A stretch of 64,000 nt of DNA from Candidatus Omnitrophota bacterium (GTDB lineage Bacteria; Omnitrophota; Omnitrophia; Omnitrophales; Aquincolibacteriaceae). The notes under the pieces were generated by a model. The model was not told the origin of the DNA. It made no database searches and worked only from the letters and a program-made list of their open reading frames with translations. The position numbers and the translations under genes were made by a program. Positions 11,753 to 61,179 of this stretch are shown piece after piece (position 1 is the first letter of the stretch; each line of letters begins with the position of its first letter). The stretch covers positions 12,284 to 76,283 of the forward strand of contig JAYTHE010000006.1 of the NCBI GenBank assembly GCA_043732705.1. Direction: 5' to 3'.

Positions 11753-11783
11753 TTTTTGCTCTGCGCCTTCGGCGCAACCGCAA
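11753..11783 (+). repeat. family-C ~30-nt REP-like hairpin element (TTTTTGCTCTGCGCC-TTCG-GCGCAACCGCAA)
   Basis: Ten or more copies in both orientations: 13507-13532(+), 13563-13593(-), 20591-20658(+, two tandem), 24395-24431(-), 47771-47859(+, two or more), 50037-50065(+, inside uvrA), 58434-58465(-), 60244-60274(+), 60999-61026(+). Confidence 0.55.
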
Positions 11784-11800
11784 CTTTCGCAGTAAAAAGT

Positions 11801-11835
11801 AAAGGAGTCAGACACATGGGTGTCTGACTCCTTTG
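11801..11835 (+). terminator. rho-independent terminator after secDF (perfect 15-bp stem AAAGGAGTCAGACAC/GTGTCTGACTCCTTT followed by a T-run)
   Basis: Inverted repeat read directly from the sequence. Confidence 0.7.
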
Positions 11836-11858
11836 TTATTTATGGTAAACTACGCGGC

Positions 11859-13505
11859 ATGACGAATTCAATTTCCACATTCACTCCTTCTGCGCTGCTT
11901 CTTAAAATTCTGGAAAAAAAGGGACTGACTGATCCAGATTCAATTCGTGAGTATTTATCGCCGCAATTGTCTTCTTTATTCGATCCTTTGCGCATGAAAG
12001 GTATGGCCGAAGCCGTTGAACGGATCCGCCGCGCGGTTTTAAGCCGGGACCCCATTCTGGTGCACGGAGACTACGATGTAGACGGTATTACGGGCACGGC
12101 GGTCGTGGCGCGTTTACTGGAGAAGCTTGGCGCACAATTTACTACTTTTCTTCCCGAACGCGAACGTGATGGCTATGGGGTTAGTTCACGGGCTATTCGC
12201 GAAGGCGCGGCGGCGGGAACCAAGATTTTAATTACGGTTGATTGCGGAGTTGCAGCAACGGAACAGGTGAAACTAGCGCGGGAATTGGGACTTGATGTGA
12301 TCGTGATTGACCATCATCGTATTCCCGCTTCGGGTGTTCCGAATGCCAATATCATTTTGAATCCTTTACAGGAAGATTGCCCTTATCCGTTTAAAGAGCT
12401 GTCCGCGGCCGGACTTGCGTTTAAATTGGCGCAGGCTTTTTTAGGCGACGACGCGTTTGAGTTTTTGGATTTGGCCGCGTTGTCCACAATCAGCGATGTC
12501 GCGCCGCTGTGCTCGGAAAACCGTGTGATCGTTAAAAAAGGCTTGGAAGTGATCGCGGCTCAAAAAAAAGCCGGCATCGCGGCTTTGATCGCGGTATCAA
12601 AAATCCGAGGTTCTAAAATCGGCGTAACCCAAGTGGCTTTTCAGCTTGCACCGAGAATTAATGCCGCGGGGCGCATGGGTTCGCCCGATTCCGCTTTGCG
12701 TTTGCTTTTAACTGAATCATTGAAAGAGGCTTCAAGTCTCGCCAATATTTTGGAAAGTGAAAATGAAGAACGCAAATTAATTGAACGCCGCTGTACCAAA
12801 GAAGCGATTGAATGGGTCGAAAGGAATGCTAATTTTAACCGCGATAAAGTGCTGGTCGCGGCGTCAGAAAGTTGGCATGTCGGCGTCATCGGAATTGTAG
12901 CGGCGCGTCTCGTTGATAAGTTTCACCGTCCGTCGATTGTAATCGGGTTTCAAAACGGAGTGGGTAAGGGGTCGGGAAGATCGATTCCCGGTTTTAACTT
13001 GTTTCATGCTTTGCAGTATTCCAAGGAGACATTGAAAGAATCCGGTGGACACGCGCAAGCCGCCGGCCTTTCGATTGAGCCGAAACAGGTGGATGCGTTT
13101 CGCGCTAAAATTAATGCTTACGCCGTTGAAAATCTGGACGCGAAACATCTTTCTAAACGAATTGAAGCTGATTTAGAAATAGAGTTGAGTGATTTGAGTG
13201 ATCAGCTGCTATCCGAACTTGAATGGCTGGAGCCGCATGGCGCGGGCAATCCCGCCCCGCGATTTTTAACGCGCGGACTAAAAATTATTTCTAATCCCAG
13301 AAAGTCACCGATCGGAATTTATGAAGCCGTTGTTAGCGATGGCAAAGAAAAAGGGATGATGCATTTCAAAGAAGATGACTATTTAAAGTTGATTGGATTA
13401 CCCAAGGACGGAACGTTTGAAGCGGTATATGAAGTCCGGAAAAAGTCCTGGAACGGAATCGACAGCATTGTTTTTTCTGCAAAACAAATAGACCTTACGC
13501 TGTAA
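11859..13505 (+). CDS. recJ: single-stranded-DNA-specific exonuclease RecJ (DHH/DHHA1)
   Basis: LVHGDYDVDGITGTAVV DHH motif and RecJ-like length; the track start at 11820 lies inside the terminator hairpin, so the in-frame ATG at 11859 is preferred. Confidence 0.8.
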   Translation: MTNSISTFTPSALLLKILEKKGLTDPDSIREYLSPQLSSLFDPLRMKGMAEAVERIRRAVLSRDPILVHGDYDVDGITGTAVVARLLEKLGAQFTTFLPERERDGYGVSSRAIREGAAAGTKILITVDCGVAATEQVKLARELGLDVIVIDHHRIPASGVPNANIILNPLQEDCPYPFKELSAAGLAFKLAQAFLGDDAFEFLDLAALSTISDVAPLCSENRVIVKKGLEVIAAQKKAGIAALIAVSKIRGSKIGVTQVAFQLAPRINAAGRMGSPDSALRLLLTESLKEASSLANILESENEERKLIERRCTKEAIEWVERNANFNRDKVLVAASESWHVGVIGIVAARLVDKFHRPSIVIGFQNGVGKGSGRSIPGFNLFHALQYSKETLKESGGHAQAAGLSIEPKQVDAFRAKINAYAVENLDAKHLSKRIEADLEIELSDLSDQLLSELEWLEPHGAGNPAPRFLTRGLKIISNPRKSPIGIYEAVVSDGKEKGMMHFKEDDYLKLIGLPKDGTFEAVYEVRKKSWNGIDSIVFSAKQIDLTL

Positions 13506-13604
13506 TATTTTTCTCTGCGCCAGCGGCATCAATTTTTTTCTGGGCTTTGCCCAACCCCATCCGCGATTGAGCAAGCTCAGAGCTAATATAAAACTGTAAA
13601 AAGA

Positions 13605-13636
13605 AAAGCCCCCATTTTTCAATGGGGGCTTTTTTG
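13605..13636. terminator. bidirectional rho-independent terminator between convergent recJ and rpmB (GCCCCCATT-TTTC-AATGGGGGC flanked by A/T runs)
   Basis: Perfect 9-bp stem with A-run upstream and T-run downstream. Confidence 0.7.
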
Positions 13637-13675
13637 TGTCGATTGCGTCCTCAGACGCAGGCCAAATATGGATCG

Positions 13676-13942
13676 TTATGCTGCAGCGGCTTCTTTAGTA
13701 TAGAGGCGGCGGGGCGGCGCTTTTCTGACTTTGCCCGCTTGAATGCAACTCGTGCAAACCTTAATGGCTTTCACTGAACCGGAAGCGAGAATGGCGCGTA
13801 CTTTCTGCAAATTCGGCAGAAAGCGGCGGCGGGTAATACCGGTCGTTTTCTTACCGATACCGCCTGATTTCTTTGAAAGACCGCGGCGCGCGATCGAATT
13901 TCCAACAATGGGTTTTTTTCCGCAAATTGCACATGTCTTCAC
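13676..13942 (-). CDS. rpmB: 50S ribosomal protein L28
   Basis: MKTCAICGKKP...RRRFLPNLQKVR matches the L28 N-terminal signature; C-terminal basic extension. Confidence 0.75.
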   Translation of the reverse strand: MKTCAICGKKPIVGNSIARRGLSKKSGGIGKKTTGITRRRFLPNLQKVRAILASGSVKAIKVCTSCIQAGKVRKAPPRRLYTKEAAAA

Positions 13943-14128
13943 TGTAATACTCCACTTAATTTAAGCCCCGCTGCTCAAACAGTCCTCGCTTCGCTGCGGA
14001 ACTCGCATCGACGCTTAAACAATGTTCCGTAGGGGCATTGCCCTTTACCTGCGGCAAAGGGCGATTCGAAGTTTGCTGGTCGCAAACTCGCTTACAAAGG
14101 AAGCGTCATTATAGGAATCCATTCACGC

Positions 14129-14157
14129 TTGGCAAGTGCTTTTTTCTGGGCTATACT
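14129..14157 (+). promoter_or_regulatory. sigma70-type promoter TTGGCA-N17-TATACT upstream of the CBM48 gene/glgA
   Basis: Near-consensus -35 and -10 hexamers with 17-nt spacer, read from sequence. Confidence 0.5.
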
Positions 14158-14520: not shown

Positions 14521-14631
14521 ATGAATGCCGTTAGACTCTTAACCTACACTGTTATGAATATATATAAACTAAAGCTTGAAAAATTGCGCAACTATGCTTG
14601 TTGCTATTTGAAGAGAGTCTAACAGGATGAA
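14521..14631 (+). repeat. family-A ~110-nt MITE-like element flush with the glgA start codon (ATGAAT...CCGTTAGACTCTTAAC...GAAGAGAGTCTAACAGG ATGAA)
   Basis: High similarity to 21761..21871 over the whole length; TIRs; flanking ATGAA(T/A) on both sides. Confidence 0.6.
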
Positions 14632-16093
14632 AATTGTTCATGTCGCTTCCGAATTCGGGAAATTTGCGAAAACAGGCGGTTTGGCCGATGTTACTTCCTC
14701 TTTAACGGATGCCTTGGCCGGGCTGGGGCATGAGGTTTCTGTTTTTTTGCCGCGTTATCGTTTTTCCGATAAAGTGACAACGGGTTTTAAGAAAGTCATT
14801 GATGCGCTCGATGTCACCATCGGCCATCAAAAAGAAAAGGGCGCGGTTTATTCCGGCAAGCTTGAATCGGGAGTCACCGTTTACCTGATTGACCACCCCG
14901 AGTTTTTTACCCGCGAATTTATCTACGGAACCTACACCGGCGATTATGCCGACAATGACCGCCGCTTTACTTTTTTTCAGCGCGCAGTTTTGACAGCGAT
15001 TGATAAACTCGCACTGGATCCCGAGATTATTCATTGCCACGATTGGCAAACAGGCTTGATTCCGGTTTATTTGAAGAACCGTGATTTTCGCGGCGGGCGA
15101 TTTAAAAAAATCAGAACTGTTTTCACGGTGCATAACCTTGCCTATCAAGGTAATTTTCCGCCTGATTCGTTGCCCGTAACGGGGCTGGGTTGGGAGCATT
15201 TCCGGTTTGATTTATTGGAATTTTACGGCAAGGTCAGTTTTATTAAAGGCGGACTTGTTTTTGCCGATGCGGTGACAACTGTGAGTGAACGCTACGCGCG
15301 CGAAATTCAAACCAAAGAATTTGGCTGCGGGCTGGATGCTGTTTTACGCGAGCGCGCGCTTGATTTGCATGGCATTGTAAACGGTATTAATCCGGAAGAG
15401 TGGAATCCGGCGGGCGAAACCGGCTTAGCGGCCAATTTTTCAGCCTCAAGCCTTGCGGGTAAGGCCACATGCAAGCAAGCGCTTCAGCGCGACAATGAAT
15501 TTGTGCCAGATGAAAAAATTCCGGTGTTTGCTTTTGTGTCCCGTTTGGTTTCGCAAAAGGGCCTAGATATTTTGATTCCGGCTTTTGAAGCGCTCGCGGG
15601 GATGGAAATTCAGCTTTTGGTTTTAGGAACAGGTGAAGAGCGTTATCACCAGGCTTTGCGCGACCTTGCGAAAAAGAACCGCGAATGGCTCAAAGTACAT
15701 ATTGTTTTTGATCCCGCGACGGCAAAGCAAATGTATTCCGGTAGTGATTTCTTTTTGCTGCCCTCGCTGTATGAACCTTGCGGCTTAGGGCAAATGATCG
15801 CTTTGCGATACGGAACCATTCCCGTGGTGCGCGAAATCGGCGGCCTGGCGGATACGGTGACCGAATTTAACCCTGTTTCATGCACCGGGAACGGCTTTGT
15901 TTTTCAGGAATATAAGGCCGAGGCGCTGATTGACGCCGTGCGCCGTGCGGTTAAAGTTTTTAAAAAGAAAAAAGAGTGGCAGCAGCTGCAGCAAAACGCT
16001 TTTGCCTGTGATTTTTCGTGGGAAGCTTCCGCCAAAAAGTACGTTGAGCTTTATAAAAACGTTAAGCCGATCAAGGTAAAACTTGAGAAGTAA
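14627..16093 (+). CDS. glgA: glycogen synthase (ADP-glucose type, GT5)
   Basis: MKIVHVASEFGKFAKTGGLADV N-terminal signature; full length ~488 aa. Confidence 0.9.
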   Translation: MKIVHVASEFGKFAKTGGLADVTSSLTDALAGLGHEVSVFLPRYRFSDKVTTGFKKVIDALDVTIGHQKEKGAVYSGKLESGVTVYLIDHPEFFTREFIYGTYTGDYADNDRRFTFFQRAVLTAIDKLALDPEIIHCHDWQTGLIPVYLKNRDFRGGRFKKIRTVFTVHNLAYQGNFPPDSLPVTGLGWEHFRFDLLEFYGKVSFIKGGLVFADAVTTVSERYAREIQTKEFGCGLDAVLRERALDLHGIVNGINPEEWNPAGETGLAANFSASSLAGKATCKQALQRDNEFVPDEKIPVFAFVSRLVSQKGLDILIPAFEALAGMEIQLLVLGTGEERYHQALRDLAKKNREWLKVHIVFDPATAKQMYSGSDFFLLPSLYEPCGLGQMIALRYGTIPVVREIGGLADTVTEFNPVSCTGNGFVFQEYKAEALIDAVRRAVKVFKKKKEWQQLQQNAFACDFSWEASAKKYVELYKNVKPIKVKLEK

Positions 16094-16245
16094 GCTCTAA
16101 GCACGAAACCCTAAATCATAAATAAATTCCAATGATTGAAATCCAAAAGCGTGTCTTTGAGTCATTGAAATTTGTTGCTTTGTGTTTATTTAGAATTTAG
16201 ATATTAGGATTTGGGATTTAAATATGTCTAACGATATTTTAAAAA
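16094..16245. repeat. family-D ~130-150-nt palindromic AT-rich element (ends CTCTAAGCAC…CTAAATCATAAATAAA / TTTATTTAGAATTTAGA)
   Basis: Reverse complement of 33644..33768 aligns with it (CTCTAAGCAC, CTAAATC(A/C)TAAATAAAT, CCAA...). Confidence 0.45.
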
Positions 16246-17085: not shown

Positions 17086-17212
17086 TGAAAAATTCCATCT
17101 ACTGCGTTACAAGCTTCACAGCGGTTCGCTTGCGAATCGCCAAACGATTCATAGGCTTGTGCGGCGTATTTCTGCATACGCCTCCGCGGGCACTCGCTTG
17201 CGCCTTGTATTT
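17086..17212 (+). repeat. family-B ~100-127-nt repeat immediately after the thiG stop (…TCCATCT(A/G)CTGCGTT…TGTGCGGCGTATTTCTGCATACGCCTCCGCGG…CTTGCGCCTTG…)
   Basis: Three near-identical copies (17086, 27694, 59718), all + orientation, all starting at a TGA/TAA-AAAA stop context. Confidence 0.6.
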
Positions 17213-17243
17213 GATCAAACTATAAGAAACAGGAAGGTTTGTT

Positions 17244-20558: not shown

Positions 20559-20590
20559 CCGCTCTCTTTTGCCGCCCTGTTTTGTATTCG

Positions 20591-20658
20591 CCTCTGTGCG
20601 CTAAGGCGCACAACCGAGCGGTAATAATTGTTTGGCTCTGCGCTTCGCGCAACCGCAA
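20591..20658 (+). repeat. two tandem family-C REP-like hairpins in the rplM leader
   Basis: CTCTGTGCGC-TAAG-GCGCACAACCG then GCTCTGCGC-TTC-GCGCAACCGCAA. Confidence 0.5.
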
Positions 20659-21514: not shown

Positions 21515-21706
21515 ATGTTTTTGCCTCTGCGGCCAGCTTTTTTAGCTCTGTCGCGTTGGCACAACTGCAGCAACCGGCGGCTCAAATCAGCAGTGGTTGT
21601 TTTTATTTTGTTGCTGGCATTCGGAGTTCTCTCCGGATGCCAGTCTTTTTTTGAGGATTACCAGTACGCGCCGGTAGCATCGTCGTCGTCCGGTTCTTCT
21701 TACTAA
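21515..21706 (+). CDS. candidate small lipoprotein (63 aa; signal peptide with lipobox LSGC, Ser-rich tail)
   Basis: RRLKSAVVVFILLLAFGVLSGCQ is a textbook lipoprotein signal; no obvious RBS, start uncertain. Confidence 0.3.
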   Translation: MFLPLRPAFLALSRWHNCSNRRLKSAVVVFILLLAFGVLSGCQSFFEDYQYAPVASSSSGSSY

Positions 21707-21871: not shown

Positions 21872-24317
21872 TTTCAAGAAATATTTTTTTACCGTCGTTT
21901 CCATTCTCATCTTCTTTCTGGTTGTTTTTTTATCCGCGGTTTTTTTACGCTATCATTCTTGGAGCACCGATCCTCGCCCCGCGGAAAAGCTGGCGGCTTA
22001 TTTTTCGCGCATTACGAAGAGTGATTTTCAATATAAGTCTTTGGAATGGCGGCTTTTGCCTTTTCCTGCGGCTCGTTTTTCTGAGCCCGTTTTTAAATTT
22101 AAAAGTGATTTGCATCATGAGCTCAAAGCGCGTTCATTAGTTTTAAATCTTGATCTAGTGAAGCTCCTCTTTGGAGATTTTGGGTTTTCTGAGCTTCATC
22201 TCAGCGAGGGAGAGTGGCATGGCCAGATTGACGCGCCTAAGGGGGTGCATAATTTTGTGGTCGAGCATATTGACCTGAAAACTTCTGCGCTTTTGTCGGA
22301 TCGGCCCGTAAAAATTTATATGAGCGGAGATACCGGCGGCCGGAGGAAAGCGGTTGTCATTCACGGCGATTTAAAATTACCGCCGCTTGAAGAGCCGCGT
22401 CTAGATAGTTTGGGTTTCGAAGTTCAGGTTTTAACGCGTAATTTTAAGTTTGAAGACAGTCCGGAATGGGAATTTTTAGGCTGGATTCCAAGCTCGGGGC
22501 TTTCTGACTTTTTAATTGAATTAAAACATGAGCCCATGAGTGATCGTGTTGATTTTTCGGGTGATGCGGGACTGCATGAACTTTCTTTCCGCTCCGCAGA
22601 TCAGGCCAAAGCAGTGCCGTATAAAGTCGGAAATTTGCAGGTTAAATTTGCGGGGTATTTCAGTCCGAAGACGGATGAATTAAAATTTACGCATTGTTCC
22701 GCCGCGTTGCCTTTCTCACAATTTAATCTTCAAGGCGCTTATCTCCCGCATCGCCGTGAATTCCGTTCGATGACGTTTAGTTTTTCAAATGTCAAATTGG
22801 ATGACTTGCCGTCTTATTTCCCGGATATGAAAAACCGAATTCCTTACTTTATCGGATTTTCAGGACAAACGGACTTGAGTTTTTCACTTAATGGATTTCC
22901 GAATCATTTAAAAATTTACGGTGATTTCGATTTGACGCATACCTTGTTTACTTACGGGCGCTTCTTTCAAAAAGCCAAGGAAAAACCATTTCGCATCAAG
23001 ACCGACTTTGATTGGGCGGCGCAGCTGTTGTCCGGAGAGTTTTCGGGCAGTCTTGATAACCTGACATTTAAAGGCAATCTTCCGGAGTGGCGGCCATCGG
23101 GGGCCATGAAAATTAATTTTATTACGAATGCTTTTGCCGCCGATCAACTGCCCGGGTTTGTGCCCTTTTTGTCGAGTTATGAGTTAGGCGGAACCATGAA
23201 ACTTTTTGCGAACTTTGACGGTAATTTACAAAGCACCGCTCCTTTTCAAAAAATGTTTCATTTAAATATGCAAGAGGGCCGTATTTTAAGAAAAGGCACT
23301 GGTTCGGGCTTTAAAGATTTGGACTTGGATTTGGACTTTGGCCCGTTATTGATGGAAGTCAAGGCGCCGCGGTTTTCGGTGGGGGGATCATTTTTTGAAG
23401 GTGCGCTGAAAGGAATTCATCCTGAAAAGGATCCGAAGTGGGAAGGGCATTTGACCTCCCAAAAATTGATTGCCGCTAGTGTTTGGAAGGAATGGAAAGA
23501 ATTTTGGGGCGGTGAAAATGCGGCCTGGCTTGAGCGCCTGCATCCGTGGCTTCAAAAAATGATTTTGAGCGAGGATCCTTATGAGTCAGTAAAAGCAGAT
23601 TTTTCATCGGAAAATAATGCTTCTCAGATTCATTCGCTTGAGGCCAAGGCTTTTGACGGGCAGTTGTCCGGATCCGTCTCTGTTCAGACGGTCGATCAAG
23701 GCCAAAAAACTGAACTAAAAATGAATGGCGCGGGGATGGATGCGGCCCGCTTGTTTAAGCTTTTGGGCGCTACGCAGCCCGCCTTAGAAGGCCGGGTGGA
23801 TTGGAAGGCTGAATTGGAAGGCTCGCCGGCTTCAGGTCATACGGATTGGTCGGGGCCGATTTCGCTTTCGATAAAAAATGGTTTCTTAAATCACTTTGGT
23901 TATGTTCAGGCTTTTGAACAGATGGAAACTTTAAAGAAGGCGTCTTCAGAAGGCAGCGACCGGTTGGCTTTTAAATTTTTGAACGTCGAGGGTCATGTTG
24001 AAAATGAACGATTTAAAGCCAGTCAGGTTAATTTTGAAAATGAACAAATTCAAGTTGAGGGTGAAGGCGAGGTAACCGGCGACGGCATCTTGAATTTCCG
24101 GTTAAAAACTCATCTTGAGGCGGGATACTTCCGGCAGCTTTTTCCAAAACGCGCGGATGATTTTATTTCCGGGCAGGATAAATTTTTTGGCCCTATCACT
24201 TTGCTTGCGTCCGGTCCGTTGGATGGTTTGAATGTTAAGCCGGATCCGCAGTCGGTTGCCGAATTAGCAAGCTGGTATGCGCATAAAAAGACCGAGTCCC
24301 TCTCGAAGTATCTGTAA
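21867..24317 (+). CDS. AsmA/TamB-like membrane-anchored envelope protein (N-terminal TM, large periplasmic region)
   Basis: 816 aa with N-terminal TM helix and beta-rich remainder; family call from architecture only, no strong motif. Confidence 0.4.
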   Translation: MNFKKYFFTVVSILIFFLVVFLSAVFLRYHSWSTDPRPAEKLAAYFSRITKSDFQYKSLEWRLLPFPAARFSEPVFKFKSDLHHELKARSLVLNLDLVKLLFGDFGFSELHLSEGEWHGQIDAPKGVHNFVVEHIDLKTSALLSDRPVKIYMSGDTGGRRKAVVIHGDLKLPPLEEPRLDSLGFEVQVLTRNFKFEDSPEWEFLGWIPSSGLSDFLIELKHEPMSDRVDFSGDAGLHELSFRSADQAKAVPYKVGNLQVKFAGYFSPKTDELKFTHCSAALPFSQFNLQGAYLPHRREFRSMTFSFSNVKLDDLPSYFPDMKNRIPYFIGFSGQTDLSFSLNGFPNHLKIYGDFDLTHTLFTYGRFFQKAKEKPFRIKTDFDWAAQLLSGEFSGSLDNLTFKGNLPEWRPSGAMKINFITNAFAADQLPGFVPFLSSYELGGTMKLFANFDGNLQSTAPFQKMFHLNMQEGRILRKGTGSGFKDLDLDLDFGPLLMEVKAPRFSVGGSFFEGALKGIHPEKDPKWEGHLTSQKLIAASVWKEWKEFWGGENAAWLERLHPWLQKMILSEDPYESVKADFSSENNASQIHSLEAKAFDGQLSGSVSVQTVDQGQKTELKMNGAGMDAARLFKLLGATQPALEGRVDWKAELEGSPASGHTDWSGPISLSIKNGFLNHFGYVQAFEQMETLKKASSEGSDRLAFKFLNVEGHVENERFKASQVNFENEQIQVEGEGEVTGDGILNFRLKTHLEAGYFRQLFPKRADDFISGQDKFFGPITLLASGPLDGLNVKPDPQSVAELASWYAHKKTESLSKYL

Positions 24318-24508
24318 CATTTAGGTTCTGGGCGGAACGCCCAACCACCGGTCCTCAACTCTAATATTTAATCAAGCTTCCCTGATAGAGCCATTTGCTG
24401 CTTTGCGTTTGAGCGAAGCTCAGAGCAAAAATTATAGCCGGAATTTTTTCCGCAGTTTGATGACGAGATTCCTAGCAGCTTTTAAATGAAGCCGCAAGTT
24501 AAGGAGTA

Positions 24509-47770: not shown

Positions 47771-47859
47771 TTGCTTCTGCGCATTGCACAACCAGCGAAG
47801 TAGCTCAACTGCGGTTTGCGTGGCACAGTTTTTTTGCTCTGTGCTTCACACAACTGCAA
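47771..47859 (+). repeat. cluster of two or more family-C REP-like elements between the giant OMP gene and the lipoprotein gene
   Basis: TTGCTTCTGCGCATTGCACAACCAGCGAA and TTTTTTTGCTCTGTGCTTCACACAACTGCAA. Confidence 0.45.
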
Positions 47860-47887
47860 TTTGCATTAATTTTTAAACGGAGGAACT

Positions 47888-48295: not shown

Positions 48296-51105
48296 GTTCG
48301 ATTGAGCTGCGTCGTGTTTCAACCCATAATTTAAAAGGGTTCGACCTCCGGCTTTCCCATCGCAAAATTCATGTTATGACCGGTGTCTCCGGCTCCGGAA
48401 AATCTTCTTTGGCATTTGATACGCTGTATGCCGAGGGCCAGCGCCGCTATATGGAATCGCTTTCTTCGTACGCTCGTCAGTTTCTTGAAAAAATGCCCAA
48501 GCCGGATATTGAATCTGCGACAGGGATCCCTCCTGCCGTTGCGATCCAAGCCAAAAACGTTGTTTCCAACGCAAGGTCGACAGTCGGCACTCAAACCGAA
48601 GTGAACGATTATTTACGGTCGCTTTTTGCGCGCGTAGGACATTTGCATTGCCCTGATTGCCAAGGCACGGAAGTGACCGCCTACCAAACAGACTCTGTTT
48701 TAAACCAGATTTGCGGCGAAAAAGCAGACCGTTTGACGGTATTTTTCCCTTTTATGCTAAAAAAGAATTCAAAGAGTGAAGCGGAGGCGCTGGCCTCGGA
48801 CTTTCTGAAACAGGGTTTTGAGCGCTTTTCCGAACCCGGCAAAGAATGGATTTCGATTCAAGCCGACAAGCTTACCGGGAAAAAAGTCCGCGAGATTGCC
48901 GTGCTTGTCGATGAGCTTGCAAATACCGCATCCAATCGAAACCGGATAAGAGAGGCTCTCGAATTGGCTTTTCAGGCGGGGCAGGGACGGGTAGGTGTGA
49001 TAAGCGGGAAAGCCACGCAATGGTTTTCAAAAGATCTGCAATGCTCTTCCTGCCGCCGTATTTTTAAAAAGCCGACTGAAAACTCTTTTTCATTCAATAG
49101 TCCGATCGGGGCCTGTCCGGTTTGCCAGGGTTTTGGACGGGTGATTGAAACCGATTGGAATTTAGTTATTCCGGATGAGTCCAAATCAATTCAAGAAGGC
49201 GTGATTGAGCCTTGGACCAAAGCCAGTACACGCTGGGAATTAGGGCAGCTGCTCGATTTTTGTAAACGTAAAAAAATCTCAGTTAAAGTTCCATGGAAAG
49301 AGCTTGAACCTAAACAGCGTAAATGGATTTTATATGGCTGCGAGGGAGATGAGTTCGCGTCCGTAACCGAGTTTTTTAAATATCTCGAAAAGAAAACTTA
49401 CAAAATGCATATCCGCATTTTTTTAAACCGCTACCGCGGCTATGCGGTTTGTCCCGCCTGCAAAGGTGTGCGGATTCAACCCGACGCTTTAAACGTATTT
49501 GTCGGCAGGAAAAATTTTGCGGATATTCAGGAAATTAAAATCAACGCGTTGGCGCTTTTTTTCAGAGATTTAAAGTTAACTTCTTATGAAACCGAAAGAG
49601 CGGAAGCGCTTTTGGATGAAATTCGCGCGCGCCTCGGCTTTTTAAGCGAAGTCGGTTTGGGATATTTGACGCTTTCGCGGATGTCGCGCACGCTTTCCGG
49701 CGGCGAAGTTGAAAGAATTCATTTGGCATCATCGCTCGGCGCTTCGTTGGTTGACACGCTGTATGTTTTGGATGAGCCGAGCATCGGATTGCATGAGCGT
49801 GATAATCAGATGTTGATTGGGCTTTTACGAAAGCTGAGAGATTTGGGAAATACCGTGGTTGTTGTGGAGCATGACCGTACGATGATCGAAGCTGCCGATG
49901 AGGTGGTTGATTTAGGGCCGCGCGGCGGCGAAGGCGGCGGAAAAATTCTTTACCAGGGCCCGGTAGCGGGGCTTTTACAATGTGAAGAATCGCTGACAGG
50001 GCGTTACCTGTCGGGACGCGAGACGCTATCACGTTTAAGCTCTGCGTTCGCGCAACCGCGACAACAGGCAAAGGCGATAAAAATTTTGGGTGCTTCCGCA
50101 CACAATTTAAAGAATTGCGATGTTGAAATTCCTTTGGGGAAACTTGTCGTGCTTTCGGGTGTTTCAGGTTCGGGGAAGAGCACCTTACTTTATGATGTGT
50201 TGTACAACCGTTATCAAAAATACCGCGGCCGCGCCATTTCACAGGAAGACTTGGGAGCGGTGAAGTCGATTCGCGGCTGGGATACGCTTGGAGATATGGT
50301 TTTGATCGATCAATCGCCGATTGGGCGTTCCCCGCGGTCAAATCCCGTGACTTATATGGGTATTTACGATGAAATCCGCAAAATATTTTCGCGGCTTCCC
50401 GCGTCCAAAGCGCAGGGGTTTGGTCCTGGACATTTTTCATTTAATGTGGACGGCGGACGCTGCAATGCCTGCAAAGGCGACGGCGAAGTCAAAGTTGAAA
50501 TGCATTTTCTTGCGGATGTTTATGTGCGCTGTGAAGCCTGCGGCGGAAAGCGTTTTCAACGGGACGTGCTTGCGATTACCTATCAGGGAAAAAATATCGA
50601 CAAAGTTTTGGGAATGACCGTAACCGAGGCGCTGAATTTTTTTTCAAAGTCGCCCGCAATCGTGAAATCTTTGACGATTCTAGAAAATACGGGGCTGGGT
50701 TATTTGCGTTTGGGTCAGCCGACATTGACTCTTTCGGGCGGGGAAGGACAAAGGCTTAAATTAGCGAGCGAGCTGGCCGCATCGCAATCTTCAAAGCAGC
50801 TTTATCTTTTTGATGAGCCGACAACGGGCTTGCATGAACATGATATCCGCTATCTGATCAAAGCTTTTGACGAATTGCTTGCGCGGGGACATTCCGTGCT
50901 GGTGATCGAGCATCACATGGAATTAATTCGACTTGCCGATTGGGTGATTGATCTAGGTCCCGAAGGCGGAGATGCCGGCGGCGAAGTGGTTTATCAAGGC
51001 GACGTAAAAGGCCTGCTCAAATGCGCACGGTCGCATACGGGGCGCTGTTTATCGCAATACCTCCAAAAAACAAGTTTGAAGATTCCCGCTCTTCAAACGT
51101 CTTAA
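48292..51105 (+). CDS. uvrA: excinuclease ABC subunit A
   Basis: THNLK...GVSGSGKSSLAFDTLYAEGQRRY, two ABC ATPase modules, zinc-finger Cys pairs; TTG start. Confidence 0.9.
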   Translation: MSSIELRRVSTHNLKGFDLRLSHRKIHVMTGVSGSGKSSLAFDTLYAEGQRRYMESLSSYARQFLEKMPKPDIESATGIPPAVAIQAKNVVSNARSTVGTQTEVNDYLRSLFARVGHLHCPDCQGTEVTAYQTDSVLNQICGEKADRLTVFFPFMLKKNSKSEAEALASDFLKQGFERFSEPGKEWISIQADKLTGKKVREIAVLVDELANTASNRNRIREALELAFQAGQGRVGVISGKATQWFSKDLQCSSCRRIFKKPTENSFSFNSPIGACPVCQGFGRVIETDWNLVIPDESKSIQEGVIEPWTKASTRWELGQLLDFCKRKKISVKVPWKELEPKQRKWILYGCEGDEFASVTEFFKYLEKKTYKMHIRIFLNRYRGYAVCPACKGVRIQPDALNVFVGRKNFADIQEIKINALALFFRDLKLTSYETERAEALLDEIRARLGFLSEVGLGYLTLSRMSRTLSGGEVERIHLASSLGASLVDTLYVLDEPSIGLHERDNQMLIGLLRKLRDLGNTVVVVEHDRTMIEAADEVVDLGPRGGEGGGKILYQGPVAGLLQCEESLTGRYLSGRETLSRLSSAFAQPRQQAKAIKILGASAHNLKNCDVEIPLGKLVVLSGVSGSGKSTLLYDVLYNRYQKYRGRAISQEDLGAVKSIRGWDTLGDMVLIDQSPIGRSPRSNPVTYMGIYDEIRKIFSRLPASKAQGFGPGHFSFNVDGGRCNACKGDGEVKVEMHFLADVYVRCEACGGKRFQRDVLAITYQGKNIDKVLGMTVTEALNFFSKSPAIVKSLTILENTGLGYLRLGQPTLTLSGGEGQRLKLASELAASQSSKQLYLFDEPTTGLHEHDIRYLIKAFDELLARGHSVLVIEHHMELIRLADWVIDLGPEGGDAGGEVVYQGDVKGLLKCARSHTGRCLSQYLQKTSLKIPALQTS

Positions 51106-55196: not shown

Positions 55197-55227
55197 AAAA
55201 AGCCACGAATTTGCTATCATACGCGCC

Positions 55228-56009: not shown

Positions 56010-56021
56010 CGGGGGAAAAGC

Positions 56022-56597: not shown

Positions 56598-56605
56598 ATT
56601 TGACT

Positions 56606-57691
56606 ATGGCGCAGAAAAGAGATTATTACTCGGTGCTTAGCGTTGAGCGCACCGCGACTGGCGAAGAAATTAAAAAATCCTACCGTAAAGTTGCGATGCA
56701 ATACCACCCCGACCGTAACCCCGGCGATCATGCCGCCGAAGAAATGTTCAAAGAAGCTGCAGAAGCTTACGCTATTTTAAGCGATTCAGCCAAGCGCGCT
56801 CAGTACGACCAATTCGGCCACTCGCTGGGCGGTGGGCGCGGAGGTTTTTCCGGTGATTACGGAGACGTCGGTGATATTTTTGAAGATGTATTTGAAGGTT
56901 TTTTTGGAGGAGGCGGAAGACGCAATCCCAACCGTGCACAAAAAGGCTCAGACCTCGAATATAAAATTGAAATGACTCTAGAAGAAGTTTTGAAGCCGAA
57001 AACTTTGGATCTTAAAATTCCGCGGCTGGAAAACTGCAGTGAATGTTCTGGAAGCGGTGCCGCGCCCGGATCTAAAAAAGTAACCTGTAATGATTGCCGC
57101 GGCAGCGGACAGATTCGTGTTTCCCAGGGTTTTTTTAATATGCAGACGACTTGTCCGCGCTGCCGCGGAGCAGGCGCATTTATTGACAAGCCCTGTAAGC
57201 CTTGCGGCGGTGCCGGACGTGTGAGAGATACACGCAAGCTGGAAGTGAAGATTCCGGCAGGCATGGACCATGGAACGCGTCTTAAAGTAACAGGGGAAGG
57301 CGAGGCGGGACAAAATGGCGGGCCGCGCGGAGACTTGTATGTTCAGGTGCTACTCAAAAAACACGATTTGTTTGAGCGGAATCATGAAGATATTCATTGC
57401 GAATGGAGTATTCCGTACACAGCGGCAGTTTTGGGCGGGACAGTTTCAGTTCCGACGCTTGAAAAAGAGGCAAGTTTAAAAATTCCTGCCGGCACAGTTC
57501 CGGGAAGAGCTTTAAAAGTTGAAGGCGCCGGTATTCCGTTTGTGCGTTCGCCTGACCGTCGGGGAGACCTTTACATCCATGTTCAGATTGAAGTGCCCGA
57601 AAAAGTTTCCAAGCGTGAAAAAGAGCTTTTGGAAGAGTTGGCCAAAGAGCGCGGCGAGAAAGTAAAAGCAAAAAAAGGGATGTTTAGTTAG
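56606..57691 (+). CDS. dnaJ: molecular chaperone DnaJ
   Basis: J-domain with HPD, G/F-rich region, four CxxCxGxG zinc-finger repeats. Confidence 0.9.
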   Translation: MAQKRDYYSVLSVERTATGEEIKKSYRKVAMQYHPDRNPGDHAAEEMFKEAAEAYAILSDSAKRAQYDQFGHSLGGGRGGFSGDYGDVGDIFEDVFEGFFGGGGRRNPNRAQKGSDLEYKIEMTLEEVLKPKTLDLKIPRLENCSECSGSGAAPGSKKVTCNDCRGSGQIRVSQGFFNMQTTCPRCRGAGAFIDKPCKPCGGAGRVRDTRKLEVKIPAGMDHGTRLKVTGEGEAGQNGGPRGDLYVQVLLKKHDLFERNHEDIHCEWSIPYTAAVLGGTVSVPTLEKEASLKIPAGTVPGRALKVEGAGIPFVRSPDRRGDLYIHVQIEVPEKVSKREKELLEELAKERGEKVKAKKGMFS

Positions 57692-57983
57692 GTTCTGTCG
57701 ACCTTTTTTATAAAATAGCGACAGGCCCGCATTGCAAGCAGTACAAGGAACGAGGGAGGAAGGCGCACCCGTGTGGTGCGTCGACGATGGAGTGACGAAG
57801 TAATGCTTCGCAATCCGTCCTGTCCCTCTGAAAATATCATTAACGGGTTATGGTGGCATGGTTGCCATTCCGGCGTTGTTTTCTCCTTGGCGTAGTGCAT
57901 CGACTACGCCGTCGTCGTCACGCCTTGGACTGACAACCATGGCACTCATAACGCTAATTTACAAAAAAGGTCGGCAGAACCTC

Positions 57984-58406
57984 ATGGAATATTTTGATTA
58001 TCACACCCGCGTGATTTACCGCGATACCGACAAAATGGGTATCAGTTATTACGCTAACTATTTTGTTTGGTTTGAGGCTGCACGCACCGAATATTTCCGG
58101 GCTTTGGGATTGCCCTATACAGAATGCGAAAAAAAGGGTATTTTCCTGCCTGTGATCGAAGCGAATGCCAAATATATCGCGCCCTCGACTTACGATGACA
58201 AATTAATCGTTAGAACAAGCGTCAGTAAATTTACACCGAGCACAATCCGTTTCGAATATTTGGTTGTCAACGCCGCGACTGAAAAAATTCTGACGCAAGG
58301 TTTTACGGTACATGTTTTTGTTGATCGAGAAATGAATCCCTGCCGCGTTCCCCACGAAGTCGAATCAATCGTAGAGATTTATTCGCTGTTTGATTCCAAA
58401 AAATAA
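57984..58406 (+). CDS. YbgC/4HBT-family acyl-CoA thioesterase
   Basis: YYANYFVWFEAARTEYF hot-dog fold signature; start placed at MEYFDY ATG. Confidence 0.7.
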   Translation: MEYFDYHTRVIYRDTDKMGISYYANYFVWFEAARTEYFRALGLPYTECEKKGIFLPVIEANAKYIAPSTYDDKLIVRTSVSKFTPSTIRFEYLVVNAATEKILTQGFTVHVFVDREMNPCRVPHEVESIVEIYSLFDSKK

Positions 58407-58699
58407 ATTCTGCGTTGCAATTTTTAGAATGATGTTGCGGTTGAGCGAAGCTCAGAGCAAAAAAATATCTCAGAGAAATCACAGAAAAATTTTGACTGTG
58501 TGCCCGCACGGTGTTAAAGTAGCCGCGCTTCGAAAGACCTTGTCCCACGGGCTTTTCCGCGGGATACTATTTATTCTGCTCCGAGCTTTGCTTAACCGCA
58601 AAGTAATGGCTTAGCATGGACGAAGCGAATTGAAATTCAAAAGCGGGACGATGTTTGTTGCGCTCTGAGCCGCGGCTCAATCGCAAAACAAAAGGAAAG

Positions 58700-59710
58700 A
58701 TGGCTGGAACCGAACGAGTGACTGTTTTGGGGGATGGAGGATGGGGGACAGCGCTTGCGCTTGTGAACGCGCGGCGCGGAAATGATGTCCTGCTATGGTC
58801 CGCTTTCCCCGAATATGCCGCGCAAATGAAAGAGCGCCGTGAAAATTTTAAATTTCTTCCCGATGTACCGCTTCCGAAAAATATTCATATTACTTCTGAC
58901 TTGAATGAAGCGCTGCTTTTCGCCGAAATCGTTATTTTAGCTATTCCGACGCAATTTATGCGTAGTGTTCTTCAAAAAGTGCGGCCGCTCGTGCGCGGAA
59001 AAAAGATTTTTGTCAGTGTTGCCAAGGGCATTGAAAAACAAACCTGTATGCGACCCTCGCAGATCGTTTCAGCCGAATTGGGCGATGTTCCGCTTGTCAT
59101 TTTAAGCGGTCCTTCGCATGCCGAAGAGGTTTCGCGCGGTATTCCGACTCTGGTTGTGGCGGCTTCCAAAAAAGTGGAATACGCGAATAAGATTCAAGAG
59201 ACGTTTAAAGACAAATTTTTCCGTATTTATGTTCAGCATGATTGGGCCGGTGTAGAGTTGGGTGGCGCTTTGAAAAATGTCGTTGCTGTCGCGGCGGGAG
59301 TTTGTGACGGCCTTGGCTTTGGAGATAACACGAAATCAGGCCTTTTAACCCGCGGCCTTTTTGAAATGAGCCGTATGGGCGTAAAAATGGGTGCGAATCC
59401 GACAACTTTTTTTGGACTTTCGGGCGCGGGCGATTTAATGACGACTTGCTTCTCAAATCATGGACGTAATTTAAAAGTCGGCCGCGAATTAGGTAAGGGC
59501 CGTAAGATCAAAGAAATTTTAGATGAAATGGAAATGGTCGCGGAAGGCGTTGCGTCCGCGGAGGCTGTGCATGAACTTTGCCAACGCGAAGGCATTTCTC
59601 TTCCGATCATGGAAGAGGTTTATAATATTCTTTGTAAGGATAAAGATCCCAAACAAGCGGTTTCCGACTTACTGAGCCGTGACGCATACGAAGAGTGGAA
59701 ACAGTACTAA
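58700..59710 (+). CDS. gpsA: NAD(P)H-dependent glycerol-3-phosphate dehydrogenase
   Basis: VTVLGDGGWGTALA Rossmann motif, GpsA C-terminal domain; RBS AAGGAAA. Confidence 0.85.
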   Translation: MAGTERVTVLGDGGWGTALALVNARRGNDVLLWSAFPEYAAQMKERRENFKFLPDVPLPKNIHITSDLNEALLFAEIVILAIPTQFMRSVLQKVRPLVRGKKIFVSVAKGIEKQTCMRPSQIVSAELGDVPLVILSGPSHAEEVSRGIPTLVVAASKKVEYANKIQETFKDKFFRIYVQHDWAGVELGGALKNVVAVAAGVCDGLGFGDNTKSGLLTRGLFEMSRMGVKMGANPTTFFGLSGAGDLMTTCFSNHGRNLKVGRELGKGRKIKEILDEMEMVAEGVASAEAVHELCQREGISLPIMEEVYNILCKDKDPKQAVSDLLSRDAYEEWKQY

Positions 59711-59717
59711 TGGTCCC

Positions 59718-59814
59718 TGAAAAACTCTCATCTGCTGCGTTGCAAGCAGCGCTTCTTTGTGCGGCGTATTTCCGTATACGCCTCCGCAGTCGCTCGCTTG
59801 CGCCTTGCATCTAA
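59718..59814 (+). repeat. family-B repeat copy after the gpsA stop
   Basis: Aligned by eye with 17086 and 27694 copies. Confidence 0.6.
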
Positions 59815-59913
59815 GAATTTTTGAGTGACCATTTAAAAGATTTTTTCGAACAACAACAAAGTCAGACGATGTTAATAAATAGCTTCGTTTGGTTTTTATA
59901 ACAGGAGCATCAA

Positions 59914-60186
59914 GTGAATAAAGCAGAACTTACGCAAGCAGTTGCGTTGAAGACAAAATTATCTAAAGCTAAGGCAGCAGAAGCGCTTAACGCCGCTTTT
60001 GATACCATTCAAGCTTCCCTCAAAAAGGGTAAGAATGTTGCTTTGATCGGTTTCGGAACTTTCAAAGTTCGCAGCCGCAAAGCACGCACAGGCCGCAATC
60101 CTCAGACCGGCGCTGCGCTTAAGATCAAAGCTTGCAAGGTTCCTGCTTTTTCCGCTGGTAAAGCGTTGAAGAAAGCTGTTAACTAA
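59914..60186 (+). CDS. hup: DNA-binding protein HU
   Basis: MNKAELT...GFGTFKVRSRKARTGRNPQTG HU/IHF signature; GTG start with AGGAG. Confidence 0.85.
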   Translation: MNKAELTQAVALKTKLSKAKAAEALNAAFDTIQASLKKGKNVALIGFGTFKVRSRKARTGRNPQTGAALKIKACKVPAFSAGKALKKAVN

Positions 60187-60202
60187 GCTTTTCTGATTTA
60201 AG

Positions 60203-60237
60203 AGCCGCGCGCGGGAAACCGTGCGCGGCTTTTCTTT
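60203..60237 (+). terminator. rho-independent terminator after the HU gene (AGCCGCGCGC...GTGCGCGGCT + T-run)
   Basis: 10-bp stem with one mismatch, 8-nt loop, TTTTCTTTT tail. Confidence 0.6.
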
Positions 60238-60284
60238 TGCTGTTTTTTTAGGTTCTGAGCTGTGCTCAACCGTATTAATTATTT

Positions 60285-60743
60285 ATGAAAATTATTTTTG
60301 GATTAGGCTGGGCAGAGGGCCGCGTTAAAAACCATCTCAGGGCTTTTAAAGATCAATCCGCCGCTGAATTATTCGAAAAATACCGCGAGCGAATCGCGCA
60401 TGATTTTGGCTGCGGAGCCATGCCGATGCCCTTTGAAGATTTAAAAAAGCAAAGTGGGCTCATTTGGATCTGTGAACGTTCAAAAAAAAGCAAAATGCTT
60501 GCGAGCGAAGAGTTGTCCGCCCGCTTTCAAAAAATTTGTGATTCCGGAACTAAGAGTTTAACTATTTGGATCGGCGGTCCCGACGGGCTTACTCCTGAAC
60601 AGATAAACACGGTTCAAACAGATTTAATCTGGTCTTTTGGCCCGATGACTTTACCGCATGAGCTGGCTTCGGTGGTTGCGGCTGAACAGCTTTATCGCGC
60701 TGTTTCCATTCTCAAAAACCACCCCTACCACACGGGACATTAG
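60285..60743 (+). CDS. rlmH: 23S rRNA (pseudouridine1915-N3)-methyltransferase RlmH (SPOUT)
   Basis: C-terminus IGGPDGL...LPHELA...YRA.SI..NHPYH matches RlmH. Confidence 0.75.
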   Translation: MKIIFGLGWAEGRVKNHLRAFKDQSAAELFEKYRERIAHDFGCGAMPMPFEDLKKQSGLIWICERSKKSKMLASEELSARFQKICDSGTKSLTIWIGGPDGLTPEQINTVQTDLIWSFGPMTLPHELASVVAAEQLYRAVSILKNHPYHTGH

Positions 60744-60789
60744 GTATTTTTAAAGCCTGAAGCGCGTTAAAGGGCTGCCTGTTTAAGTT

Positions 60790-60817
60790 TTGGAACAGGG
60801 TCTAATTATGATATACT
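60790..60817 (+). promoter_or_regulatory. promoter TTGGAA-N16-TGATATACT directly upstream of tRNA-Pro
   Basis: -35-like and extended -10 read from sequence, ~14 nt before the mature tRNA 5' end. Confidence 0.45.
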
Positions 60818-60830
60818 CTCGGCCTATCAT

Positions 60831-60905
60831 CGGGACGTAGCGCAGACTGGCTAGCGCACACGCTTGGGGTGCGTGAGGTCGCAGGTTCAAATCCTGTCGT
60901 CCCGA
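60831..60905 (+). tRNA. tRNA-Pro (anticodon GGG)
   Basis: Hand-folded: acceptor CGGGACG/CGTCCCG, D-arm GCGC..GCGC, anticodon stem CACGC/GCGTG loop UUGGGGU, T-arm GCAGG-TTCAAAT-CCTGT, discriminator A. Confidence 0.8.
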
Positions 60906-61179
60906 AATTACTTCGCTTAATCAAATCACTCCTCGCTTCTCTGCGAAACTCATTTTAAATGAGGAATGATTTGACAACGCTTCGTTAGGCTTTGCTCTGC
61001 GCCTTTGGCACATCGCATGTTGGAATTTTGCTAGGCGCAAAATGGGCCGAAAAATACTTTTTTGCAGGTTCGTTCAGTCTTAAAGCCACTTTAAAAAGCA
61101 CTCTTCCAGGCTTGTTTCACAGCTCTCAAAAAGGTATATTAAGTCGGTTTTCAATACATTAAAAGGGAGCCCCCACCTT

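Follow-up and report, generated by a model that had tools for sequence, protein, structure and literature searches.

Repeats of the repetitive extragenic palindrome (REP) type count among the most frequent non-coding elements in bacterial chromosomes; to our knowledge, a mobilising enzyme is known for their GTAG class only, and such repeats are regarded as lineage-specific. Here, we describe a family of short hairpin-forming repeats in a 64-kb stretch of DNA from an uncultured Omnitrophota bacterium (the window, to whose positions all coordinates refer unless another locus is named), which carries about 20 copies, 10 of them strong (E <1e-4) and about 10 weaker or decayed. The family is one of REPs in the broad sense, namely a short palindrome in many, mostly extragenic copies, with complementary changes in its stem and with copy number and sites that vary among relatives. 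We judge it probable, at roughly 60%, that these are non-coding interspersed hairpin repeats of the REP kind, palindromic DNA that multiplies in the chromosome and builds up at places that tolerate insertion. The one unexpected property of the family is a core that is common to several phyla.

Repeat finding and a loose motif pattern first picked up the family. A covariance model of sequence and structure, built from 10 window copies and run unfiltered over the window, gave 10 matches with E-values of 1.8e-9 to 5.5e-5 and five further matches with E-values of 0.007-0.06, all of the latter in spacers or at sites confirmed by eye. A structural pattern consisting of TCTG, a perfect stem of >=3 bp, a loop of 2-8 nt and CAA matched 13 times, as against 1.19 +/- 1.12 (maximum 6) in 200 dinucleotide-preserving shuffles, so that the matches survive a shuffled background; the bare 11-mer TTTTTGCTCTG was weakly enriched (8 vs 3.4). 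The model matches together with the shuffle control establish the family as real in the window, where the copies are scattered across 55 kb on either strand and at irregular spacing, with all sites intergenic except two. The window itself has 46% G+C, a GC skew that is positive throughout and nearly all of its genes on the plus strand; its L13 protein is 96-85% identical to proteins from Candidatus Omnitrophota/Omnitrophica metagenome-assembled genomes (MAGs), and a Logan contig from run SRR23617244 matches positions 50461-60905 at 100% identity.

A preliminary description of this DNA, made from the sequence, had proposed a REP-like small palindromic element in both orientations, and this is borne out: every copy site that it named exists (for example secDF-recJ, recJ-rpmB, the rplM leader and ybgC-gpsA), the model and the pattern place copies on the plus and the minus strand, and the copies are intergenic, show compensatory stem changes, come and go among relatives, nest in one another and include an in-frame insertion in uvrA. 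Sites beyond those first listed lie at 5852-5892(+) and 5969-5998(-), at 21517-21585 and inside uvrA at 50028-50067. The consensus then given has to be amended, in that the invariant parts are CTCTG and CAACCG around a variable stem, and of the two loops proposed the TTC triloop is mostly found, whereas the UUCG tetraloop is not.

In the alignment of the 10 copies the unit reads T-run / GC / TCTG / N-GC / TTC / GC-N' / CAACC / GC / A-rich. The element, of about 30-40 nt, begins with a T-rich 5' edge, followed by an outer stem of 2-4 bp, an internal loop, an inner stem of 3-6 bp whose sequence is free, and a short loop, mostly TTC. The internal loop between the two stems is conserved and asymmetric (2x3, TC/ACC), and the outer stem co-varies between GC/GC and CC/GG and appears in folds as TTGC/GCAA or variants. 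Folding gives an inner stem of 5-6 bp with a 3-nt loop, and the identical two-stem hairpin is obtained from either DNA strand. Among the aligned copies there are neither conserved flanking direct repeats nor repeats beyond the hairpin itself.

The constraint on pairing was examined in a second alignment, of 60 copies taken from three other Omnitrophota genomes (21 loci), in which CTCTG and CAACCG are again nearly invariant and pairing holds in 99.7% of inner-stem cells. Fitting this alignment to the covariance model favours the structure; the pair types nevertheless speak for themselves, the third inner-stem pair being C-G in 29 copies, A-U in 12, G-C in 12, U-A in 6, G-U in 1 and unpaired in none, and the outer pair G-C in 48 and C-G in 9. 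Entire stems are exchanged for different ones that again pair (CGAC/GTCG, TGGC/GCCA, TACC/GGTA, AGTC/GACT), the observed covariation was reached in 0 of 500 column shuffles, and slid registers drop to 26-46% paired. The near-absence of G-U pairs from the inner stem fits a palindrome that needs to pair on both DNA strands. Read from the opposite strand, the loop with its closing pairs is GCGAAGC, a DNA mini-hairpin of unusual stability; this apex and the scarcity of G-U incline us to the view that it is the DNA form of the palindrome, or its pairing on both strands, that counts, and not a single RNA.

The presence of copies in orthologous spacers varies among the syntenic relatives that we compared, namely L001/L002 (GCA_003535755.1), L004, L005, L122 (the closest relative for rplM), L116 (the congener GFS_12873, GCA_043718225.1, at ~80% nucleotide identity) and L118-L121. 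The promoter and the first 30 leader nucleotides of rplM are conserved in all relatives, and the leader holds two copies in the window, one in L001 and none in L122 (whose L13 is 96% identical), L004 or L005; the window copy at 20580-20622 sits in the place of the loop of a leader hairpin that the relatives have kept, and the 20624 copy has an orthologue in L001 that L122, L004 and L005 are without. At secDF-recJ the window has a copy where L001 has a plain terminator, and the YhdP-rnc spacer measures 270 nt with two convergent copies in the window vs 16-70 nt without copies in L001, L004 and L005. The copy between HU and rlmH is missing from L116 and L118 and degenerate in L119 and L120, while at ybgC-gpsA the L116 orthologue of the minus-strand copy has no pairing and one of the two leader copies (58651) is missing. 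L004 is devoid of copies across 16 kb of synteny. Two window sites, 47742-47812 and 21517-21585, each enclose an inner copy. The pattern is that of a repeat family that inserts, persists and decays, and neither that of conserved regulatory sites nor that of a very recent burst.

The rplM-rpsI leader at 20530-20575 consists of a TTGACA-17-TATACT promoter and a CCGCTCTCTTTTGCC-GCCCC..GGGGC hairpin, kept in L001, L004, L005 and L122; this hairpin may be a regulatory one of the L13 leader type and has no Rfam match.

Most copies begin 0-15 nt from a stop codon (secDF, recJ, rpsI, the YhdP-like gene, a 1589-aa gene) or right after a terminator T-tract (HU), and others occupy leaders in which a recognisable TTGACA-17-TATACT-type promoter precedes them (rplM, e.g. 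the 20624 copy, and gpsA). The density extends to the congener GFS_12873, which has exact-core copies (see below) on >=14 contigs and, in its 4.7-kb tuf-rpmG-tRNA-secE-nusG-rplK-rplA-rplJ contig, 10 copies with at least one per spacer and five per strand. Open reading frames (ORFs) with copies on both sides are housekeeping genes (tuf, rplB, rplK, rplA, rplJ, nusG, rpsM, ddl, fabG, tig). Of the 50 copies that lie between co-directional genes, 39 have the sense and 11 the antisense orientation; as the GC skew agrees with gene direction at all loci, an orientation tied to transcription cannot be told from one tied to replication.

Where copies enter coding sequence, the frame stays open. The in-frame copy in uvrA has an orthologue at the equivalent site of L116 with a different, complementary stem (FASESSTQPA), and 45 nt downstream L116 carries a second copy that adds 26 residues cleanly and in frame when set against the window protein. 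The first ~20 codons of a small lipoprotein ORF that follows rpsI are made up of two nested copies; with its orthologous copies this ORF is open in the window, L001 and L005, and L004 has a short version of it without copies. In other cases the translated element makes up spurious N-terminal extensions, as in MALRFAQPQ of the rplM ORF and MFALRFAQPH of the GFS_12873 trigger factor. The lipoprotein ORF (..LLLAFGVLSGCQSFFEDY..) is conserved and lies at 21515-21706, directly after rpsI.

Table 1. Copies of the hairpin family in the window, and locations of a second, unrelated repeat family
Feature	Position	Strand	Support and context
Strong copy GGC-TCTG-TGC-AAA-GCA-CAACC-GCC	5852..5892	+	Covariance model 43.9 bits, E 3.7e-8; directly after tRNA-Arg 3' fragment 5799-5850
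Degenerate copy GCTCTG-GCGCAGCGGGTCGCT-CAACCGCAA, convergent with 5852 copy	5969..5998	-	Pattern match; no covariance-model call
Strong copy at secDF stop codon, upstream of recJ; 6-bp stem CGCC/GGCG	11747..11789	+	40.3 bits, E 2.7e-7
Decayed copy TTTTTC-TCTG-CGCC-AGC-GGCA-TCAA, just past recJ stop	13497..13530	+	By eye; below covariance-model threshold
Weak copy TTTTTTT-CTG-GGC-TTT-GCC-CAACC	13530..13563	+	22.1 bits, E 0.008; perfect-stem pattern match
Weak copy convergent with 13530 copy, downstream of minus-strand rpmB and terminator	13555..13594	-	22.3 bits, E 0.007; pattern match
rplM-leader copy, long stem TGCGC/GCGCA	20580..20622	+	13.8 bits; perfect-stem pattern match
Strong rplM-leader copy, tandem with 20580 copy, ~25 nt before start codon	20624..20664	+	46.1 bits, E 1.1e-8
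Nested pair after rpsI: outer TTTTTGCC-TCTG...CAACC-GGC around inner 21534-21576	21517..21585	+	Inner 30.9 bits, E 5.5e-5
Copy overlapping stop of 816-aa YhdP/AsmA-like gene, GGT-TCTG-GGCG-GAA-CGCC-CAACC-ACC	24314..24356	+	18.5 bits, E 0.058; perfect-stem match
Strong copy downstream of minus-strand rnc	24397..24437	-	44 bits, E 3.4e-8
Nested pair after 1589-aa gene: outer TTTTCG-TTCTG-AGCTA...TAGCT-CAAC-TGCGG, inner 47763-47803 in its loop	47742..47812	+	Inner 18.9 bits, E 0.045; outer read from sequence
Strong copy upstream of 135-aa ORF	47825..47865	+	43.2 bits, E 5.5e-8
Intragenic in-frame copy in uvrA (48292-51105), encodes SRLSSAFAQPRQ	50028..50067	+	18.7 bits, E 0.053
Best-scoring copy, after ybgC, upstream of gpsA promoter	58429..58469	-	49.3 bits, E 1.8e-9
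gpsA-leader copy, CCG replacing CTG	58567..58607	+	41.7 bits, E 1.2e-7
gpsA-leader copy just before ribosome-binding site	58651..58692	+	39.1 bits, E 5.6e-7
Copy right after HU-terminator T-tract, before rlmH	60241..60281	+	40.2 bits, E 2.9e-7
Decayed copy after tRNA-Pro, TTTGC-TCTG-CGCC-TTT-GGCA-CATCGCA	60985..61026	+	Read from sequence; no covariance-model call
Second ~100-nt family, window	17085-17215, 27695-27805, 59718-59830		Spacers before leuB, argB, HU
Second ~100-nt family, relatives	L116 9803-9923, L120 233-353, L001 8858-8988 and inverted 18757-18882		

To follow the family beyond the phylum, the 22-base core was written as the pattern GCTCTG-N-GCTTCGC-N-CAAMCGC and scanned across 596 Gb of sequence, where its 20 fixed bases mean that few chance matches are expected (a few, perhaps ten allowing for G+C-rich genomes). 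More than 108 stretches matched, with 72 in metagenomes in addition; the exact core occurs >200 times overall. The carriers include several Omnitrophota genomes, many alphaproteobacterial MAGs, the isolate Bradyrhizobium sp. Gha, Caldilineaceae, a Haliangium-labelled and a Bdellovibrionales-labelled MAG and unclassified bins, with Chloroflexota and Myxococcota among the phyla represented, and the core usually forms the apex of longer, lineage-specific palindromes. Single matches in Acidoferrum, Isosphaeraceae, Anaerolineaceae, Actinomycetes and Archangium were not counted, being probably chance hits in G+C-rich DNA since their N and N' are non-complementary.

What surrounds the core differs from lineage to lineage. 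In Omnitrophota the flank is of the T-run type; in many Alphaproteobacteria it is TTATTTTGG-CGCGACT-[core]-GACTGCG-CC, with the outermost pairs co-varying, and in one metagenome GTTGATG-[core]-CATCAT. In Bradyrhizobium sp. Gha (L113) the core is the apex of a GTAG-tagged REP, GTAG-GTGGGGTTAGCCCT-GCGGTTGCGCGAAGCGCAGAGC-CGCGGGGCGTAACCCACC, and variants in these carriers keep the feet around other stems, an example being GCTCTG-TTCGTTC...GACGAA-CAACCGC in the Haliangium-labelled MAG. Tandem units that include the core range over 48-167 nt, the 167-nt unit occurring in one alphaproteobacterial bin. In a lineage of ~53% G+C, tRNA genes have the core immediately downstream of them, with an inverted T-stem copy on one side of it and a duplicated tRNA 3' end on the other; these units are reiterated whole, and the same is seen at class II tRNAs with 5' fragments. 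We infer that the core is a constant module, from which inverted duplication of adjoining DNA extends the palindrome arms outward. The exact core had no match in 2.9 million viral contigs, and BLAST with the alphaproteobacterial and Bradyrhizobium composite versions found nothing meaningful in 72,556 plasmids.

Across the loci, 26 of 212 exact cores lie <=300 nt from a tRNA gene. The arrangement of a core between an inverted tRNA-arm copy and a duplicated tRNA end, in tandem units beside an intact tRNA, was noted in the metagenome loci L129, L135, L157, L161, L176 and L178 and in L011, L140, L160 and L189. In the window, tRNA-Arg(CCG) occupies 5644-5719 and is followed, 80 nt on, by 52 nt that duplicate the 3' half of a tRNA-Arg (5799-5850, 81% identical) and then by a hairpin copy; as its T-stem differs by compensatory changes, the half derives from a different tRNA-Arg, and it looks like an att-type scar or the remnant of a lost gene.

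REPs have been sorted into a GTAG superfamily of 24 families and a CGTC superfamily of 4 families, in 8 phyla, with complementary stem variants, placement by ORF 3' ends and clusters reiterated with flanking DNA among their habits; intragenic REPs concentrate in repair genes, particularly uvrA, uvrB and recB, and the uvrA genes of Opitutus terrae and Thioalkalivibrio have double insertions (Di Nocera 2013, PMC3733652). The GTAG elements mobilised by REP-associated tyrosine transposases (RAYTs), such as the BIMEs, in E. coli, Pseudomonas and Stenotrophomonas and also in Planctomycetes and Verrucomicrobia, resemble the present family in the following respects: they are palindromes of 20-40 nt with a conserved unpaired foot tag and complementary stem changes, they occur in hundreds of intergenic copies near ORF 3' ends as singletons, inverted pairs and reiterated clusters, their number varies from strain to strain, in-frame copies are found in uvrA and other repair genes, and some, e.g. 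in P. stutzeri, have a GCGAAGC apex (PMC6006769 supplement). They differ in that the foot on the GCGAAGC strand of the Omnitrophota element is GGTTG...CAGA with both hairpin sides conserved, that this element has an extra 2-bp outer stem, an asymmetric internal loop and a T-run at its 5' edge, and that its core is common to several phyla, whereas REPs are usually specific to a species or genus.

The CGTC REPs of Alphaproteobacteria, Rickettsia (RPE-4/RPE-6) and Neisseria (dRS3) are likewise without a known dedicated transposase, are common in Alphaproteobacteria and found in several phyla, and share short unpaired tails on the far side of the stem and intragenic in-frame copies; their CGTC tag, A-T-started stems of 8-9 bp, loops of 4-5 nt and CCA tails are all foreign to the present family. 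GT[AG]G REPs are tied to class 2 TnpA(Y1) enzymes and a cross-phylum hairpin, CnGA-GCCGCGACC-GTNA-GGGAGCGG, to class 3 TnpA(Y1) (Quentin 2018, PMC6006769). The class 3 hairpins of Legionella, Planctomyces and Solibacter are short, have conserved internal mismatches, are nearly identical across phyla and reach high copy number (about 600 in S. usitatus), which makes them a precedent for a cross-phylum hairpin with an HUH enzyme; they are unlike ours in sequence and architecture, the shared CAGAGC lying 3' of the present hairpin on the opposite strand, and no class 3 gene was seen. Bradyrhizobium GTAG-14 REPs have large self-complementary loops of the GCGG/CCGC type (PMC3733652), and the inner self-complementary loop in Bradyrhizobium sp. 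Gha is exactly the present core; the L113 composite therefore identifies the Bradyrhizobium REP 'loop' with this core, which was described as a loop variant of another REP, in one genus, whereas in Omnitrophota it is free-standing and abundant. Rickettsia palindromic elements (RPE-1 and others) also insert in frame into genes that remain open; they are 100-150 bp long, AT-rich and of unrelated sequence, and the present copies are mostly intergenic.

Several other identities were considered for the hairpin and set aside. An intrinsic (Rho-independent) terminator does not fit, the T-run preceding the hairpin and an A-run following on the other strand, and canonical terminators exist separately from the copies (e.g. 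60203-60240). A sigma-54 or sigma-70 promoter would require a conserved -10/-12 element, of which there is none, and genuine TTGACA/TATACT promoters are found upstream of some copies. The NusB/NusE boxA was considered on account of the resemblance of UGCUCU...AAC to the E. coli boxA; the L065 rRNA leader and spacer repeat TTATTGAACATCGT instead, and the element lies in the rRNA spacer of that locus. CRISPR arrays and the repeats of type III antitoxins are incompatible with dispersed, irregularly spaced copies on both strands. Rfam searches at the gathering threshold (whole window, 18 loci) and in E-value mode (two sub-regions) returned tRNA/rRNA and far sub-threshold chance matches, and nothing relevant. 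The core sequence strings appear neither in PMC3733652 or PMC6006769 nor in a wider literature search, in which Omnitrophota and REP together also gave nothing.

The search for a partner gene was equally negative within its reach. When 3,033 ORFs at 108 loci were clustered all against all, just generic SDR, ABC and response-regulator families emerged, and a transposase query across 72 metagenome loci had no match. The one match of the IS608 TnpA query was an IS200/RAYT-like ORF in L044, from an Acidobacteria MAG; the core match 5 kb away from it is mismatched and probably due to chance.

By analogy, a mechanism can be sketched in which a trans-acting, hairpin-specific enzyme would recognise the invariant foot (TCTG/CAACC) of the folded single strand, such an enzyme perhaps being an HUH/Y1 transposase of the RAYT or IS200-IS605 kind. 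New copies would then be inserted beside T-runs and into the exposed loops of other hairpins, without target duplication; later events would include tandem reiteration with flanking DNA and growth of the arms outward through inverted duplication of neighbouring sequence. Copies so inserted would be transcribed in mRNAs and leaders, and may secondarily affect mRNA stability or processing. While insertion and deletion, nesting, tandem reiteration and in-frame coding insertions are seen directly in the loci compared, the mobilising step, with its enzyme acting on single-stranded DNA and its T-run or loop target, is put forward on the strength of the known systems. The core behaves in a mobile-like manner, since it sits at the apex of other palindromes (Bradyrhizobium GTAG-type REPs, the alphaproteobacterial GCGACT...GACTGCG repeats and the tRNA-arm inverted duplications). 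One may tentatively go further and suppose that the module GC-TCTG-(free stem, TTC loop)-CAACC-GC is the recognition element of a third REP superfamily with an enzyme of its own that acts on the hairpin, is common to or passed between at least Omnitrophota, Alphaproteobacteria, Chloroflexota and Myxococcota, inserts into single-stranded loops and T-runs and seeds long palindromes, including the tRNA-arm duplications; this extension is an idea to which we give rather less than even odds.

A number of observations weigh against reading the family as REP-kind repeats that multiply in the chromosome. It belongs to none of the established groups: the GTAG superfamily is excluded by the lack of a 5' GT[AG]G, the feet being CTCTG (5') and CAACCG (3'), or GGTTG and CAGAG on the other strand; the CGTC superfamily by 70 aligned copies with no CGTC tag, A-T-started stem of 8-9 bp, 4-5 nt loop or CCA tail; and the class 3 TnpA(Y1) hairpins by the absence of a 5' CnGA foot followed by GCCGCGACC-GTNA-GGGAGCGG. 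The GT[AG]G tag that is missing is the one by which RAYT-associated REPs are defined. The RAYT that the preliminary description had envisaged was likewise not encountered, phmmer with E. coli RayT, IS608 TnpA and one RAYT-like ORF finding nothing in the window or adjoining any copy in ~1.2 Mb of loci; these were three single-sequence queries of limited sensitivity, and, because RAYTs are single-copy genes, one elsewhere in these genomes would be compatible with the result. Nor is recent activity supported: every window copy differs from all the others, several have decayed and the congener's orthologous copy has lost its pairing, and the earlier characterisation of the element as 'actively spreading' is not borne out. 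As the relatives are at most ~90% identical in the relevant spacers, we infer the insertion boundaries, the target and the lack of target duplication from diverged alignments. The sense orientation of 39 of 50 copies would also fit a role at the RNA level, and function, instead of tolerance, could be the reason why copies are so exceptionally dense in strongly expressed ribosomal-protein operons.

The last two points lead to an alternative that we hold to be unlikely, namely that the copies are functional RNA hairpins, signals for the processing, stability or translation of mRNA that are read by a conserved RNA-binding protein or RNase, with selection on transcripts accounting for abundance and cross-phylum conservation and duplication merely for their origin. 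Besides the sense excess, it would explain why two minus-strand copies adjoin the only minus-strand genes (rpmB and rnc) in sense orientation, why copies lie in leaders just upstream of ribosome-binding sites and right after stop codons, and why the congener's tuf-secE-nusG-rplKAJ cluster has one in every spacer, and a conserved internal loop combined with free stems is typical of protein-bound RNA. Yet in that same cluster five of the 10 copies run antisense to the operon, the inner stem has hardly any G-U pairs, orthologous copies decay and close relatives have none at equivalent spacers, copies occur in frame within coding sequence, no Rfam family corresponds, and the U-run precedes the hairpin, so that it is no intrinsic terminator. 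The copies may have an RNA-level role all the same, and this would be compatible with the REP interpretation.

REPs are also targets of the IS1397, IS621 and ISPpu families of insertion sequences (ISs), and the copies might accordingly be footprints or preferred targets of another, hairpin-recognising mobile element (IS200/IS605, IS110/IS1111 or integrase-type), with the foot as its recombination site. The tRNA fragments and ends near copies, the fraction of exact cores close to tRNA genes, the lineage with duplicated tRNA 3' ends flanking the core and the window copy at 5852 that follows the tRNA-Arg 3' fragment would all suit such an origin, to which we nonetheless attach little credence, given that no IS, integrase or larger element interrupts or adjoins copies in the loci examined, that the 'islands' between tRNA repeats measure 50-110 nt, and that viral contigs lack the exact core and plasmids have no match to the composite queries. 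Still further from what we observe, and in our estimation very improbable, are double-stranded sites for a chromosomal protein concerned with nucleoid organisation, gyrase or segregation, their orientation biased with replication. E. coli REP/BIME elements do bind gyrase, IHF and Pol I, and the strand bias occurs in a window of uniformly positive GC skew; against this, the selection is on intra-strand complementarity with a free stem sequence, which a protein reading the duplex would not need, and the distribution among close relatives is patchy.

The window contains other repeats besides this family. An unrelated family of ~100 nt, AAAAA..CATCTGCTGCGTTGC..TTGTGCGGCGTATT..ATACGCCTCCGC..GCTTGCGCCTTGCATC..TTTTTGA (Table 1), is folded by RNAalifold into a long imperfect hairpin of 33 pairs, 11 of which show compensatory changes, with several invariant G-U pairs; it has no Rfam match and may be a structured RNA or another palindromic repeat. 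A+T-rich imperfect inverted repeats with words such as AAAGC, TAAAG and CATAAC occupy spacers at 5525-5634, 32113-32236 and 16092-16148 with 33691-33747, one of them just upstream of tRNA-Arg. A repeat of ~48 nt (ATGAATSCCGTTAGACTCTTAACC...) lies upstream of two genes, at 14521-14568 and 21761-21808, with an inverted partner at 21854-21888 that overlaps the start of the YhdP-like gene, and a similar CCCATTAGAAGCTTAA..CTTCTAACGGGATG pair is found upstream of rlmH in L120.

The hairpin family extends REP-type repeats to the Omnitrophota, a phylum known from metagenomes alone. Within these genomes the repeats explain odd ORF starts of the ALRFAQPQ type, the in-frame inserts in uvrA and in the lipoprotein gene, and the enlarged leaders of rplM and gpsA, and they are usable as a marker for strain typing and for checks of assembly and binning. 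The identity of a 22-base core between distant phyla, in spite of differing surroundings, points to a recognition machinery that they have in common, and, if the module were indeed that of a third superfamily, several lineage-specific repeats, the large-loop Bradyrhizobium REPs included, would be composites built around it.

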